From an uncultured Gemmatimonadaceae bacterium (GTDB lineage Bacteria; Gemmatimonadota; Gemmatimonadetes; Gemmatimonadales; GWC2-71-9): 49,700 nucleotides of DNA. Of the stretch, positions 25,177 through 29,393 are shown in pieces (position 1 is the stretch's first letter; every line of letters begins with the position of its first letter). The DNA lies in assembly GCA_964446395.1 (NCBI GenBank), contig CAYUOK010000002.1:1-49700 (forward strand). Direction: 5' to 3'. The notes under the pieces are model-generated. The model worked only from the letters and a program-made list of their open reading frames with translations, was not told the DNA's origin and ran no database searches. Position numbers and translations under genes: made by a program.

Positions 25177-25646
25177 GCCCCGACGATCCGCTGCTCGCCG
25201 CCGTGTCCGGCATCGCCAACGCCTGCTGTCCGCTGCCCGGGCTCGTGACCGGCGGCCAGCCCAACGACGCGCAGTTCCGCGCCGCCCGCGCCGCCGGCGC
25301 GGTGACGGTCCTGGATATCCGCGACTCGATGGAACCGCGTCCGTTCGACGAGCCGGCCCTCGCGGCGTCCCTCGGGCTCAGGTACGTGAACATTTCGGTC
25401 ACCGGCCACTCGCTCGACGACGCGACGCTGGAAAAGATCCTGGCGGTGCTGCGCGACGAGTCCGCCGCGCCGGTGTTCTTCCACTGTGGGAGCGGGAACC
25501 GGGTGGGCGGGGCGCTGATTCCCTATTTCATGCTGGACAAGGGGATGGCAGAGGACGACGCCGTGGCGCTGGCCATGCGGATCGGGCTTCGCGGAGCGGA
25601 TCTGCTGCAGTGGGGGCTGGACTACACCCGGCGACACGCCGGGTAG
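25173..25646 (+). CDS. DUF442/TIGR01244-like putative phosphatase (Cys-loop)
   Basis: The GTG start overlaps the DUF190 stop (GTGA). A 'FHCGSGNRVG' active-site-like loop is present. Confidence 0.7.
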   Translation: MSPDDPLLAAVSGIANACCPLPGLVTGGQPNDAQFRAARAAGAVTVLDIRDSMEPRPFDEPALAASLGLRYVNISVTGHSLDDATLEKILAVLRDESAAPVFFHCGSGNRVGGALIPYFMLDKGMAEDDAVALAMRIGLRGADLLQWGLDYTRRHAG

Positions 25647-25652
25647 TCGAAC

Positions 25653-26402
25653 TCAGGGCAGTTCGGCTCCGGGCTTTCCGCCCCCGGCTGACCCTCTGCT
25701 CCCGCCACCGCCCGATGTGGAGCGGGAATAGTCGCCGGCGGCGTGGGCAGTGCTCGGCGCTGAGCCGCCGAAGTTGCCGGACCCCCCGTAGGCAGGGCCG
25801 GCAGAACTGGAGGTCCGTGCTCCTGCTCCTGCGGAACTCCGAGAGCCACCCACGCTCGCAGCCTCCGCGAGTTCCGCTCCTCTCCGCAGCCCGTAACTCG
25901 TCTCGGCGAATTCCCGGTTCTGCTGTTGCTGGACCACGTAGGCGTAGAAGTCGCCCCACGTATAGAAACCGTTCAGGCCGTACGTCCAGCGCCAGGTGCA
26001 CTCGCCACCATAACAGAAGAGTTCGGCCAACCGTTCAGCGCCCGAGGGCGCCAGAACCGGATCACCCAGCCGGACCGTTGCCGCCGCGGTGAGGAGCAGG
26101 TCGCTGCTGCTATGCACGGGAACATGCCGGCACAGGCCGCCCCAGTAACCGGGACCAAGGCAACCTCGCTCATCCACCCACAGCAGAGACTGGCGGAGCT
26201 GGGTCGCGTGAGGCTTCGCGGCAACGGAAGCCACCGCGAGAATCGGATGCGCAGGGCCGAGGAACAGCTCCCAGACCGATTGATATGTGTCCGGGTAAGC
26301 CGCTCTAGCGGGCGCGGGCGGGGGGGGCTCGTCGTGGGCCACTGGAGTCGATCCAGACGGCCCTTGCAAGAGTACCCAGGCGAGGAGGAGTGGAGCGGTC
26401 AT
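25653..26402 (-). CDS. secreted Cys/aromatic-rich protein with Gly/Ser-rich tail (paralog A)
   Basis: GGAGG lies 5 nt upstream of the ATG. The signal 'MTAPLLLAWVLLQGP' is shared with ORF 26533..27108. I recognise no homology. Confidence 0.55.
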   Translation of the reverse strand: MTAPLLLAWVLLQGPSGSTPVAHDEPPPPAPARAAYPDTYQSVWELFLGPAHPILAVASVAAKPHATQLRQSLLWVDERGCLGPGYWGGLCRHVPVHSSSDLLLTAAATVRLGDPVLAPSGAERLAELFCYGGECTWRWTYGLNGFYTWGDFYAYVVQQQQNREFAETSYGLRRGAELAEAASVGGSRSSAGAGARTSSSAGPAYGGSGNFGGSAPSTAHAAGDYSRSTSGGGGSRGSAGGGKPGAELP

Positions 26403-26465
26403 GCGAGCCTCCGGAGCTGCCTCCAACGTACGGTGCGGTCCGGTGGCACACAAGAGCCGAAAGAA

Positions 26466-26498
26466 GCGGGCCCCGGCGCTCTTGCCCCGGGGCCCCGC
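26466..26498 (-). terminator. intrinsic terminator after paralog B
   Basis: 'GCGGGCCCCGG...CCGGGGCCCCGC' forms the hairpin. The minus strand continues 'CTTCTTTCGGCTCTTGTG'. Confidence 0.7.
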
Positions 26499-26532
26499 TT
26501 GCCTACGCTCGCCTCGGTGTAAGCGGCGCCTC

Positions 26533-27108
26533 TTACTGTCGGTCACCCCGCTTGGCTGGCGCGGAGGACTTGGTCGTGGCCCCTCCCGTGGAGCTCCGCG
26601 GAGCGGGGGTGTACATCCCGCCACTGAAATTCGACGACGCCCCGGCGGGGCGCGGTTGCGCCTGTGTGCCGCCCGACCCGGCCTGCGCTGTGCTTGCAGC
26701 CGAGGGCTGAGCCGTCGCAGGCTGCGTCCGCTGCGCCTCGAGGCGTCGACTCTCGTTGGCGCGCACGGCAGCCCGGACGCGGATTTCCATTTCCTTCGCG
26801 ATATCCTGCTGCACCTGCCAGAGCAGATAGTCCTCGCGCGCACCCCCGATGATCGTGCCGTTACGGAGCGCCCTGAGGGAACAGTATTCGACGCCGGCGA
26901 TGTACGTGTAGTACACGCAAGGCGCTGGTGCTACCGCAATGGGGCCGCCGGACGCGGGACCAGCCGGGGCCAGTTCGGACCGGACCTGAATTCCCCTGGC
27001 AAGCACAGGCACGGGGGTCTTCGGCAGCGCAAGAGCACTATCGTCAACCTGAGCCGTGGACGTCGGTCCCTGGATCAGCACGAGCGCGAGGAGGAGTGGA
27101 GCTGTCAT
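26533..27108 (-). CDS. secreted protein with Gln/Ser/Ala-rich tail (paralog B)
   Basis: The signal is 'MTAPLLLALVLIQGP'. The SD, 5'-UTR and upstream terminator duplicate those of paralog A. Confidence 0.55.
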   Translation of the reverse strand: MTAPLLLALVLIQGPTSTAQVDDSALALPKTPVPVLARGIQVRSELAPAGPASGGPIAVAPAPCVYYTYIAGVEYCSLRALRNGTIIGGAREDYLLWQVQQDIAKEMEIRVRAAVRANESRRLEAQRTQPATAQPSAASTAQAGSGGTQAQPRPAGASSNFSGGMYTPAPRSSTGGATTKSSAPAKRGDRQ

Positions 27109-27175
27109 GCGGAGCCTCCGAGGTTGATGCCAAGGTAGGGTCTGGTCCCGGTGCGCACAACAGGCAAAAGCCAGA

Positions 27176-27203
27176 GGGCCCCGGAGCGCTCGCCCCGGGG
27201 CCC
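27176..27203 (-). terminator. intrinsic terminator after the DUF4384 gene
   Basis: GGGCCCCGG (27176-27184) pairs with CCGGGGCCC (27195-27203), 7 nt past the stop. The minus strand continues 'CTTTTGCCTGTTGTG'. Confidence 0.7.
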
Positions 27204-27210
27204 CCCGCCC

Positions 27211-28806
27211 CTACCGTCCCCGCCGCCCGCCACCACCGCCACCGCCACCAGACGGTGCGGCACTGCCCCGACCGCCGCCGCCCCCTCCACCACCACTACT
27301 GGGCCGGGCTCCGCCGCCGCCACTCGGACGACTGCCCCCAGCGCTGCCTCCGCCGCTCCGCACCGCCGGCGACCCGCCCGAGGATCGACCCTGCGGCTGG
27401 GCGCTTGGCTGGCCGCCGGAACCGGAGCGACGGGATGGGCTTGCGCCGCCGCTTCGAGACCCAGTCGCCCCTCCCGGACTGGGGTTGGCAGTCCGTCCGC
27501 TACCAGGGGCGGAGGGTGAGATTCTCGGCCGGTCTCCAACCGAGGGCCGCGGCGAGCCGTCCGAACTCCAGCCCCGGGCACGCGCCGCCCCTCCCCCGTT
27601 GCTGGGCTCGGAGCGGGTGCGGGTCGATGGAGCCGCCTGCCCCGAGGGCGCGCGCCTGGCCCCGCCAGGGTTGGCTCCCGTGGCCGCCCCACCAGTGGCA
27701 CCAGTCGTCGGGCGGCGGGCAGCGCCGCCGGCCGATGCGCCGGTCCGGCCAGACTCGGCATTCGGCGCGGGGCGGGCGGCCGGCCGGCGGCCGGCCTCGG
27801 CACGGCCCGTGACAGTTGCGGCGTCGGTCCGGAGCCTGTCCGTGCCCGTCAGGCCGTAGCTCGGCCGGTCACGATAGGTGCTCTGAAAGACGGAAGACTG
27901 GGGCGCGAAATTGTCTCCCCGCGGCCGGTACGGATTTCCGGGAGAAGTGATGGTGCCGCCAGGCTTGAAGGTGTACGGGCGGTACCCTGTTCCCGCATAG
28001 CCATACCCTGGGTAACCGGGATGGTAGCCAGGATAGCCATACCCAGGATAGCCGTAGCCAGGGTAGCCATACCCGGGATAGCCCCAACCGTAGGCCGGGT
28101 ACCCCCAGCCGTAGGCCGGATAGCCCCAACCATAGGCGGGATAGCCCCAGCCGTACGCCGGGTAGCCCCAGCCGTATCCATACCAGGGGTCGTAGCAGCA
28201 TCCAAAACCGAACCCGATGCCGATGCTCCAGCCCCCGGTGTAGTAGGTCGGCCAGGGCCAGCCAGAGACACCGATGTAGGTGGTGGGCGCCTCGGAGACG
28301 AAATCGGCGAGTGAATAGACGATGTACCGATCCACGGCGTAGTCGAAGCCCTGGTCGGTGAAGCGCAGGACGAAGTCCGTGAGCTGGCTCTCGGGATCCT
28401 CGCTGGCATTGTACTGGTCGAAAACGGTGTAATCCCAGTGATCGGCGCGCACGAATTCAGCAAAGCGGAACTGGGACTTCGACCAAGCGGCGTAGACCAT
28501 TCCGCCACCGCCGGCCTGATCGAGATAGAACGCACCCCGGTCGTCACGGCCGACGATCTTGTAGGTCTTTCCTCCGCGAATGAAGTTGTCGTCGCCTGGA
28601 TCGAGTGGGAAAAGGACGCGGATGCGTCCGTCCTGGTCGGCCCGGAGGAGGAGAACGTACCCGTCAGCGGCGGCCCGGAACTGCACCTGCGCGTACTCGC
28701 CGCGGCTGTACTGGCCGCCGTCGCTGAGCGAAACCGTGATCGGGGGAGGCGGCCCGTCAACAAGGGACGCCGCAACCGCAATTGACGCGAACAGGGTGGT
28801 GAGCAT
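27211..28806 (-). CDS. DUF4384-domain secreted protein with aromatic-Gly-Pro repeats and a long Arg/Gly/Ser tail
   Basis: AGGAGGG lies 3 nt upstream of the ATG, and a short signal peptide follows. 'GEYAQVQFRAAADGYVLLLRADQDGRIRVLFP' is DUF4384-like (recollection). A terminator lies directly after the stop. Confidence 0.75.
   Translation of the reverse strand: MLTTLFASIAVAASLVDGPPPPITVSLSDGGQYSRGEYAQVQFRAAADGYVLLLRADQDGRIRVLFPLDPGDDNFIRGGKTYKIVGRDDRGAFYLDQAGGGGMVYAAWSKSQFRFAEFVRADHWDYTVFDQYNASEDPESQLTDFVLRFTDQGFDYAVDRYIVYSLADFVSEAPTTYIGVSGWPWPTYYTGGWSIGIGFGFGCCYDPWYGYGWGYPAYGWGYPAYGWGYPAYGWGYPAYGWGYPGYGYPGYGYPGYGYPGYHPGYPGYGYAGTGYRPYTFKPGGTITSPGNPYRPRGDNFAPQSSVFQSTYRDRPSYGLTGTDRLRTDAATVTGRAEAGRRPAARPAPNAESGRTGASAGGAARRPTTGATGGAATGANPGGARRAPSGQAAPSTRTRSEPSNGGGAARARGWSSDGSPRPSVGDRPRISPSAPGSGRTANPSPGGATGSRSGGASPSRRSGSGGQPSAQPQGRSSGGSPAVRSGGGSAGGSRPSGGGGARPSSGGGGGGGGRGSAAPSGGGGGGGGRRGR
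27982..28185 (-). repeat. in-frame 21-bp and 15-bp tandem repeats encoding (GWGYPAY)x5 and (GYGYP)n
   Basis: Plus-strand units 'GTAGGCCGGGTACCCCCAGCC' and 'CCAGGATAGCCATAC' were read directly from the sequence. They encode 'YGYGWGYPAYGWGYPAYGWGYPAYGWGYPAYGWGYPGYGYPGYGYPGYGYPGYHPGYPGYGY'. Confidence 0.9.
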
Positions 28807-28958
28807 GTGCCCTCCTGGCAGTACCGGCCGGGCTCTCGGTGAGTCCGTCTGCGATCCCTATCGCCAACAGCGAGGGTCGTGCCAAGATTAAACACGTTGT
28901 ATTGCAACAACTTAAGAATGGAGCGAAGCTCGCCTCCGTCCGGGCGAGTGGACGGATC

Positions 28959-29393
28959 TCAGCCCTCCCGTCCCCCCGCCCACCGGTGCCAGTACATCCG
29001 GAGTTCAGTGATCTTGCCGTCGGCCGTTTCGCAGAACATCGCCCCTCGCGCCTCGACCCACTCCCCGGTACGCCTGCGCCGGAAGGTGACCTTGTATTCG
29101 GCGGAGAACCAAGGGCCCACGCTGAAGATCTCGCCGCTGGTGAAGGTGACCTCGGCCTGGTGCACCGGAACATCCCGCCAGTAGTTCAGGATGGCTTCCC
29201 GGCCCTTCCGCGGGTGGGCGAACGGGGTCTCGATGAAGACCGCGTCGTCGCTGAAGACCGACATCAGCAGCGGCACGTCGCCCTTGGCCCAGCCCTTGCC
29301 AAAGGTGTCGACAAGAATGCGGCCCAGCCCGGCGGTATCGGTCGCGGCGCTTGCCGCCGGCGTCACGGGGTCCGACATTGGGGTCATCTCCAT
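28959..29393 (-). CDS. SnoaL/NTF2-like fold protein
   Basis: The internal ATG gives 'MEMTPMSDP'. 'GREAILNYWRDV...FSAEYKVTF...GKITELRMYWH' shows the typical NTF2-like pattern. Confidence 0.7.
   Translation of the reverse strand: MEMTPMSDPVTPAASAATDTAGLGRILVDTFGKGWAKGDVPLLMSVFSDDAVFIETPFAHPRKGREAILNYWRDVPVHQAEVTFTSGEIFSVGPWFSAEYKVTFRRRRTGEWVEARGAMFCETADGKITELRMYWHRWAGGREG

Follow-up and report, generated by a model that had tools for sequence, protein, structure and literature searches.

The 49,700-nucleotide (nt) window analyzed here is the start (positions 1 to 49,700, forward strand) of contig CAYUOK010000002.1 from an uncultured Gemmatimonadaceae bacterium (GenBank assembly GCA_964446395.1). 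On its minus strand, at 27211..28806, lies an open reading frame (ORF) that runs from an ATG to a TAG stop (27211-27213) and specifies a product of 531 amino acids (aa), starting MLTTLFASIAVAASLVDGPPPP. We conclude that this DUF4384 gene is a real, stand-alone unit with its own Shine-Dalgarno sequence and its own terminator. Judged by sequence, its product belongs to a Gemmatimonadota-specific subfamily of DUF4384 proteins, in which an acidic head is followed by an aromatic block of about 90 aa with a Cys pair and by an Arg-rich, predicted disordered tail of about 260 aa. The features of the locus, listed in the direction of transcription, are as follows.

28810..28816, minus strand: Shine-Dalgarno sequence AGGAGGG, seen in the sequence 3 nt before the ATG
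27211..28806, minus strand: coding sequence, from the ORF call and translation, with full-length homologs within the genus
28759..28806, minus strand: N-terminal hydrophobic segment, aa 1-16, a putative Sec signal inferred from hydropathy and a helix predicted by AlphaFold2
28297..28749, minus strand: folded acidic head, aa 20-170, comprising Pfam DUF4384 and a family-specific alpha/beta extension, from Pfam and AlphaFold2
28474-28710, minus strand: Pfam DUF4384 (PF14326), aa 33-111, 42.8 bits against a gathering cutoff of 27
27991..28257, minus strand: low-complexity block rich in aromatic residues, Gly, and Pro, aa 184-272, from composition and the family conservation profile
28195..28200, minus strand: vicinal Cys pair C203-C204, the only cysteines of the protein
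28069..28173, minus strand: five 21-nt units encoding four GWGYPAY and one GWGYPGY, aa 212-246, from Tandem Repeats Finder (TRF) and translation
28003..28083, minus strand: 15-nt units encoding five GYPGY, aa 242-268, from TRF and translation
27214..27990, minus strand: predicted disordered polycationic tail, aa 273-531 (259 aa), from composition, AlphaFold2, and codon-position counts
27916..27984, minus strand: motifs Y-R-P-Y-T-F-K-P-G-G ... G-N-P-Y-R-P-R-G, aa 275-297, matching the profile Y.PYsa+P.......G..aR.R over 83 members
27214..27249, minus strand: Gly8-RRGR end motif, aa 520-531, from comparison across genus and family
27172..27207, minus strand: intrinsic terminator hairpin with T-run, from a scan, with a GC-rich stem of 16 pairs

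The original prediction, made from the letters of this DNA, had described a strong Shine-Dalgarno sequence, a terminator hairpin after the stop, a DUF4384-like N-terminal domain, a specific repeat peptide, and two runs of eight Gly at the end of the tail, and all of these hold. The ccaggagg context of the ribosome-binding site is kept in 15/15 loci of the genus. The hairpin reads from 27207 to 27172, its scanned start lying 3 nt past the stop and its core stem beginning a few nt further on, and GC-rich hairpins also occur 3' of the stop in most loci of the genus. The head scores well above the Pfam cutoff, the quoted peptide matches the translation exactly, and both Gly8 runs are present, followed by RRGR. 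The terminator is one copy of a module of about 140 bp that is repeated at 26358-26513. A scan for sigma-70 promoters detected none, and Rfam gave no match over 25500-29300. The G+C content of the window is 70%, and long shadow ORFs overlap the gene on both strands. Three overlapping ORFs, at 26928..27812 (plus strand), 27105..27803 (minus strand), and 27849..28910 (minus strand), were set aside as high-GC shadow frames, as the substitution pattern picks the 531-aa frame; the G+C content at third codon positions (GC3) of about 0.9 in the plus-strand ORF at 26928-27812 merely mirrors Gly/Arg second positions.

G+C content by codon position was dropped as a frame test, as Gly, Arg, Ala, and Pro codons confound it (second-position G+C [GC2] is about 0.9 in the tail). 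Our frame test was a count of differences per codon position against the closest homolog (locus L002), region by region. The counts at positions 1, 2, and 3 were 6/2/44 in the head, 0/2/31 in the repeats, 3/3/29 in the mid region, and 19/9/68 in the tail. The repeats differ by 29 synonymous and 2 nonsynonymous codon changes, which indicates strong purifying selection on them. The third-position excess in every region points to purifying selection on all parts of the protein in the 531-aa frame, the low-complexity tail included. On this comparative evidence the tail is genuinely translated and conserved, a claim first made from the hairpin and now backed by the codon-position pattern and by an end motif and hairpin kept in the genus.

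It could be objected that the tail is an artefact, either an untranslated high-GC open frame or the result of an assembly frameshift inside the repeats. Its GC3 is 0.70-0.78 over most of its length and 0.56 in the last 32 codons, against 0.86 in a neighboring gene, its GC2 is 0.9, and a few homologs in metagenome-assembled genomes (MAGs) have shifted or fused ends (L003, L005, L010, and L012). However, the high GC2 follows from Gly, Arg, Ala, Pro, and Ser codons, and the third-position excess continues through the tail. The frame, end motif, stop, and hairpin are common to most loci of the genus, and tail composition and end motif are conserved over >100 clusters. We reject the artefact as next to impossible. 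The frameshift or truncation in the repeats that had been feared at the outset falls with it, given the position-3 bias through repeats and tail and the same frame in most loci of the genus.

The deviating homologs are of several kinds. L003 (G003:C7) reads through to a product of 803 aa that ends with the C terminus of the second of two small proteins encoded downstream, and L012 (G007:C1) has its tail in another frame (a frameshift). In L005 (G001:C3) and L010 (G002:C5), the last residues differ and Gly-rich coding runs on out of frame. These altered 3' ends, all in MAGs, may be local assembly errors in GC-rich low-complexity DNA or may reflect decay.

Within the genus, 15 of the 16 genomes searched contain a homolog, mostly full length, with BLASTP identities of 57-91% aa over the aligned length. 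An exhaustive phmmer search with aa 20-200 of the head, clustered at 50% identity, yielded 1064 clusters at E<=1e-3 and 651 at E<=1e-10. GTDB species genomes were also scanned for the motif [RH][IVL]RVLFPLDP, and 270 genome loci were confirmed by tblastn. The 80 of these loci that were listed are in MAGs titled Gemmatimonadota, -ales, or -aceae, with one Longimicrobiales and one titled just "uncultured bacterium," and their record titles indicate mostly soil and sediment as the source. Within the order, homologs are present in 23/24 genomes of one GTDB family (f1) and in 8/8 of another (f3). A third family (f2) gave 0/8 in the strict search; when five of its genomes were searched again, one weak and very distant match emerged, which retains the head, a Trp-rich stretch, and the basic tail. 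Databases name the family proteins just "DUF4384 domain-containing" or "hypothetical." The literature searched is silent on this architecture and refers to DUF4384 and DUF3300 only as unnamed domains, and the search found no paper on disordered secreted proteins of Gemmatimonadota.

Across the family, the block reaches a median of 47% Y/W/F in its best 40-aa window, near residue 215, and tails contain, at the median, 19% Arg and 0% Lys. Heads and tails have opposite net charges, with medians of -8 and +24, respectively. At least two of the last six residues are basic, usually after a Gly run, in 97 of the 107 full-length members. Outside the head, the family is conserved at GW..YY..GW.hGh.FG....Y.P, at Y.PY..+P.......G..aR.R, at a GRR island, and at a terminal GGGGRR. 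The protein studied here has the traits that define the subfamily, namely a hydrophobic N terminus with an acidic head of about 150-180 aa containing RIRVLFPLDP, an aromatic block with an even number of Cys (2), a tail with 35 Arg against a single Lys, and a G8RRGR end. When the ten longest members were searched with Pfam for a fused domain informative about compartment, only DUF4384 was found, once duplicated. The combination of repeats and tail that had been called unusual for an exported bacterial protein is thus the standard build of a large lineage-specific family and not a one-off oddity. We are almost certain that the gene is real, translated, and vertically inherited and belongs to a lineage-specific, putatively exported family.

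The folded part of the protein is the head. Its DUF4384 match (E 5.7e-11) spans profile positions 2-80 of 81, homologs bear the same precomputed domain, and the subfamily motif lies at aa 61-70. AlphaFold2, run on an 83-sequence alignment, predicts an immunoglobulin (Ig)/macroglobulin (MG)-like beta-sandwich with two helices (estimated isoelectric point [pI], 4.45). The predicted local distance difference test score (pLDDT) is >90 for aa 20-170 and <50 for aa 175-531, where it rises slightly at ARGWSSDG. Foldseek searches of the head against PDB returned just generic Ig/MG-like folds (7ptp archaeal S-layer, complement C3c MG domains), none with E <= 1e-3; the Ig/MG-like neighbors of the predicted structure would be typical of surface proteins. 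A sequence profile compared with PDB gave only chance low-complexity matches (E >= 0.07). For the 531-aa protein, NCBIfam produced 0 matches and Pfam nothing besides DUF4384.

The aromatic block is dominated by few residues (in aa 196-272, G 26, Y 22, P 11, and W 6). It contains a strand-like motif conserved in the family (GWS-IGI-FG) and has a summed Wimley-White interfacial energy of -31.9 kcal/mol. The repeat region reads ...GWSIGIGFGFGCCYDPWYGY-(GWGYPAY)x4-GWGYPGY-(GYPGY).... The 21-bp and 15-bp DNA repeats had been taken as near identical, but TRF finds matches of just 84% and 82%, respectively, with copies 77-89% alike. Among the heptad copies, the sole nonsynonymous difference is a GCC-to-GGG change (Ala to Gly) in the fifth unit, all others being synonymous, and this divergence implies that the copies are old and are kept by selection on the peptide. 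The forecast that copy number would vary was correct in that GWGYPxY occurs 0-6 times in homologs from related species of the genus; the proposed route through near-identical DNA is contradicted by the synonymous divergence. Tyr in the block stays at 22-31, and some lineages have Phe-based blocks, e.g., DPFFFDPFFCDPFFFFHPFFF (DPFFF type). From the 0-6 heptad copies and the Phe-based blocks, the conserved trait is aromatic density, neither the heptad nor tyrosine, and the targets of selection seem to be aromatic density and tail charge rather than exact heptads. Three members from other lineages (P0136, P0157, and P0204) have a Phe-based block (DPFFFDPFFCDPFFFFHPFFFRPVFF...) replacing the Tyr/Trp/Gly type, with Cys pairs retained.

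The tail consists largely of G (66), S (37), R (35), A (34), and P (29), with 1 Lys, and has a net charge of +27, a pI of 12.0, 25.5% Gly, and a grand average of hydropathy (GRAVY) of -0.98 (whole protein, -0.63). Its 259 residues include 4 RG, 8 GR, 10 RP, and 7 SR/RS but 0 RGG. The RGG-like label given to it earlier does not apply, nor does it fall among RGG/GAR-box regions, which have clustered RGG/RG repeats. Conserved islands are AGRRP at about aa 338-342 and, at the level of the genus, ARGW-SDG (ARGWSSDG) at aa 409-416. According to the family profile, the best-conserved stretch of the tail is its end. The protein ends GGGGGGGGRGSAAPSGGGGGGGGRRGR, with the two Gly8 runs and RRGR; 10/15 loci of the genus share ...GGGGRRGR, and an eleventh (L002) ends ...GGGGGRR.

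A similar end is found on an unrelated protein. When C termini with a Gly run and RR were sought among all ORFs of the genome that contains the window (74% complete), the only credible ORF besides the DUF4384 gene was that of a DUF3300 protein (G000 contig C219 624-1931, plus strand; 435 aa, 239.5 bits). Its sequence combines a signal peptide with an aromatic/Pro stretch that includes a CC pair (WGGSCCYAGWG), a segment rich in Asn, and a Gly/Ser/Arg/Gln tail that ends ...GGGGARGGGGGRRR. Among its 120 closest DUF3300 homologs, 112 end in a Gly run and basic residues. The DUF4384 and DUF3300 families are unrelated (hhalign probability of 33% over 12 columns; BLASTP matches in low-complexity sequence only). 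The block and tail thus seem to form a module portable between heads, which would imply that function resides in block and tail themselves, whether they serve as a material, a tether, or a tag.

The mature protein is probably extracytoplasmic. The N terminus has a hydrophobic h-region (maximum Kyte-Doolittle [KD] hydropathy of 2.4 over 12 residues; AlphaFold2 helix at aa 2-15) with small residues before D-G-PPPP. There is no Lys or Arg in the n-region of aa 1-16, and K/R are likewise absent from the first 8 residues in 169/178 members, whose signal-like N termini are followed by conserved acidic residues and Pro (DDPP). No transmembrane (TM) segment occurs after residue 150, the maximum 19-residue KD value being 0.9 here and 0.65 in the family median. 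Since no downstream stop-transfer segment would hold it back, the tail should be exported along with the block. The number of Cys is even (2, 4, or 6) in 144/146 Cys-containing members, and nearly all lie within the aromatic block, 1-12 residues apart, as expected for disulfides in an oxidizing compartment. A block that spans the membrane was set aside on hydropathy and Cys pattern. The exported protein of the original prediction therefore looks right, given the hydrophobic N terminus, the even Cys, and the lack of a later TM segment. The K/R-poor, signal-like N terminus with DDPP is in itself an atypical signal-peptide design, found family-wide (P0002-P0230).

The neighborhood of the gene is composed of housekeeping functions. 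A SnoaL/DUF4440 gene lies upstream, crcB-DUF190-DUF442 and nadE lie further on, and this synteny recurs at many loci. In 80 loci, analysis of conserved neighbors found housekeeping synteny and shadow ORFs but no partner, secretion, or oxidase gene. Directly downstream in the window, at 26533-27108 and 25653-26402 (both minus strand), are tandem paralogous genes for small, putatively exported proteins that start MTAPLLLA... and have Gly/Ser/Ala-rich tails. Their Shine-Dalgarno sequence, 5' leader, and first codons, together with the preceding terminator hairpin, make up a repeated module (26358-26513 and 27064-27221, 71-78% identity). Another member of the genus (L021 9761-10021) has a homolog of the downstream small protein, possibly truncated, after its DUF4384-family gene. 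At a distant locus (L022 4599-7823), a polyphosphate kinase gene (ppk) is directly upstream, an arrangement that is unconserved at other loci.

Based on these features, we tentatively propose that the protein is an extracytoplasmic sticker-and-spacer protein, cohesive or adhesive, of the envelope or matrix, a reading that we consider plausible though short of probable. The whole mature protein would lie outside the cytoplasm and act as envelope or matrix material. Numerous weak contacts, cation-pi and electrostatic, would arise from the aromatic block and the Arg-rich tail. They could link these two parts to one another, to the acidic heads of neighboring molecules, and to anionic partners, for example lipopolysaccharide (LPS), acidic polysaccharide, extracellular DNA, or mineral surfaces, so that the protein would cohere or adhere. 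The export route, the final location, and the cohesive or adhesive mechanism are what we infer here. Several observations weigh against this proposal. The putative signal peptide lacks the usual Lys/Arg, and Sec passage of a +27 tail would oppose the membrane potential. CxxC-spaced Cys (40 pairs) could also mark sites of metal binding or redox chemistry. Beside the gene there is no conserved secretion, cross-linking, or partner gene, and with 0 RGG triplets in the tail the analogy to condensates is one of composition alone. A broader version, which we regard as doubtful, is that these proteins form an undescribed Gemmatimonadota class in which a disulfide-pinned aromatic block and a disordered cationic tail ending in a Gly run and Arg are attached to unrelated heads (DUF4384 and DUF3300). 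Such proteins might form an extracytoplasmic coacervate or adhesive layer, with Gly-run-RRR as a helix-less anchoring or recognition tag. The layer would be a bacterial counterpart of mussel- or FUS-type Tyr/Arg materials and could bind cells to anionic polymers or to minerals of the soil.

The other explanations were ranked, from greater to lesser weight, as a tether or sorting tag, a dityrosine or amyloid wall, an exported hydrophilin, a membrane anchor with a cytoplasmic tail, and the artefact dismissed above. The tail with its Gly-run-RR(R) end may be a lineage-specific portable module that places different globular heads at a common envelope site, with LPS or peptidoglycan anions, a receptor, or a processing enzyme as candidate sites and the DUF4384 head as the working part. 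This fits the presence of a similar block and tail on the only other protein of the genome with a credible end of this kind, the Gly-run and basic end shared by most homologs of that nonhomologous DUF3300 protein, and the position of the end motif as the best-conserved portion of the tail. Yet no TM helix precedes the basic cluster, unlike in every described sortase, exosortase, or rhombosortase signal. No NCBIfam signal model matches, no candidate processing enzyme lies nearby, and there are just two carriers in one 74%-complete genome. The other conserved tail motifs and the aromatic block would also be superfluous for a mere tag, and we hold this explanation to be rather unlikely. That the Tyr/Trp/Gly/Pro repeats form dityrosine links or amyloid fibrils and thereby a rigid extracellular structure is suggested by 22 Tyr and 6 Trp in about 77 residues with perfect heptads, by literal motifs that also occur in wall and adhesive proteins of the dityrosine type, and by the strong purifying selection on the repeats. 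But Tyr is replaced in sister lineages by Phe (DPFFFDPFF...), which is incapable of dityrosine, and the number of heptads (0-6) is unconserved. AlphaFold2 shows no ordered beta structure or beta-solenoid in the block, the high Pro and Gly content disfavors amyloid, and no peroxidase, laccase, or curli/Fap-type export genes are nearby. We judge such a cross-linked or fibrillar wall protein improbable, and the amyloid or dityrosine reading first put forward fails as a mechanism for the whole family. The wider resemblance to structural and condensate-forming proteins that accompanied it survives as a likeness in composition to Tyr-rich structural or adhesive proteins and to Tyr/Arg sticker proteins, without the RGG motif.

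An exported hydrophilin, in which the Gly-rich hydrophilic tail would shield the envelope of a soil bacterium during drying in the manner of late embryogenesis abundant proteins and hydrophilins, has about as slim a chance. The Gly content, GRAVY, and predicted disorder of the tail agree with it, as do carriers that are mostly soil and sediment MAGs. It would leave the aromatic block, the paired Cys, the strict Arg bias, and the end motif unexplained, no stress genes occur in the context, and the hydrophilicity of the tail is borderline against the usual criterion (Gly above 6%, mean hydrophilicity above 1). A block placed in or across the inner membrane, with the Arg tail inside according to the positive-inside rule and binding nucleic acid, polyphosphate, or anionic lipid, would accommodate the net charge of the tail, the interfacial energy of the block (about -32 kcal/mol), an N terminus without positive charge, and the single upstream ppk gene. 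However, the ppk neighbor is unconserved, the block is rich in Pro and Gly, and neither this protein nor the family at its median has a hydrophobic span (maximum 19-residue KD values as given above). The even, closely spaced Cys of the block point to disulfides in an oxidizing compartment, and we consider a membrane anchor very improbable.

Gemmatimonadota are among the commonest soil bacteria, and their envelope is little known. The family described here comprises >1000 sequence clusters, is present in nearly all genomes of two families within the order, and is maintained by selection over its full length, the disordered tail of 260 residues included. If the proposal of a cohesive or adhesive material were true, it would represent a clear bacterial case of a Tyr/Trp-Arg sticker grammar outside the cytoplasm. 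It could then bear on soil aggregation, surface attachment, and drying tolerance, and might offer a template for protein adhesives. In addition, the fact that two unrelated exported families share a Gly-run-RR(R) end leads to the testable idea of a new C-terminal tag.

The protein overlaps only in part with the known systems to which it can be compared. Like other DUF4384 (PF14326) proteins, it has a beta-sandwich accessory domain that scores over the Pfam cutoff. Published mentions have DUF4384 appended to caspase-like proteases, Ser/Thr kinases, or Csx30, whereas here it is the sole folded domain, N-terminal, putatively exported, and lengthened by a family-specific extension of about 60 aa; in this family, the head always precedes an aromatic block and a cationic tail. 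With PEP-CTERM, LPXTG, GlyGly-CTERM, and MYXO-CTERM signals it shares an Arg cluster at the extreme C terminus, here in two unrelated exported families. It differs from them in that its basic cluster is not preceded by a signature motif and TM helix (beyond residue 150 there is no hydrophobic span, and NCBIfam gives 0 matches) and in having no sortase-like gene nearby. Curli and Fap functional amyloids are similarly exported (putatively so here), repeat bearing, and Gly rich, but the present protein lacks imperfect repeats rich in Gln/Asn, a predicted beta-solenoid, and a dedicated export operon. In contrast to what defines the CsgA/FapC class, its block and tail have pLDDT values of <50 with no strands, and its neighbors are unrelated.

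Closer in composition are proteins that combine aromatic and Arg-rich regions. FUS-type prion-like and RGG proteins also have a Tyr-rich block and an Arg-rich region in one chain, both predicted to be disordered. They are cytoplasmic or nuclear RNA-binding proteins, whereas the protein studied here is probably exported, has 0 RGG in its tail and just 5 [GS]Y[GS] in its block, and has a block that is Pro rich and bears Cys pairs. Mussel foot proteins and oocyst-wall proteins are secreted materials that cohere or adhere via aromatic and cationic residues. The likeness to those of mussels and apicomplexans lies in a composition rich in Gly, Tyr, and Pro (and Trp and Arg) and extends to the literal motifs GYGYPGY and YGYPGY, which are found in a Tyr-rich protein of the Toxoplasma oocyst wall and in foot proteins of the quagga mussel (PMC8531782, PMC6474901). 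Those proteins are eukaryotic and depend on DOPA (3,4-dihydroxyphenylalanine) or dityrosine chemistry, whereas here no modifying enzyme is evident and Phe-based relatives argue against Tyr-specific chemistry; the resemblance is one of composition, not homology. The Gemmatimonadales DUF3300 proteins (PF11737), distant relatives of Escherichia coli YacH, differ in their unrelated head, with no profile similarity. YacH, which is the named member of DUF3300, differs in its helical tail of SASPEQRQ repeats and in its terminus, ...GARRLER. What the DUF3300 protein of the window's genome has in common with the DUF4384 protein is the signal peptide, the aromatic/Pro stretch with a CC pair, the Gly/Ser/Arg-rich disordered tail, and the kind of end (GGGGRRR in the DUF3300 protein).

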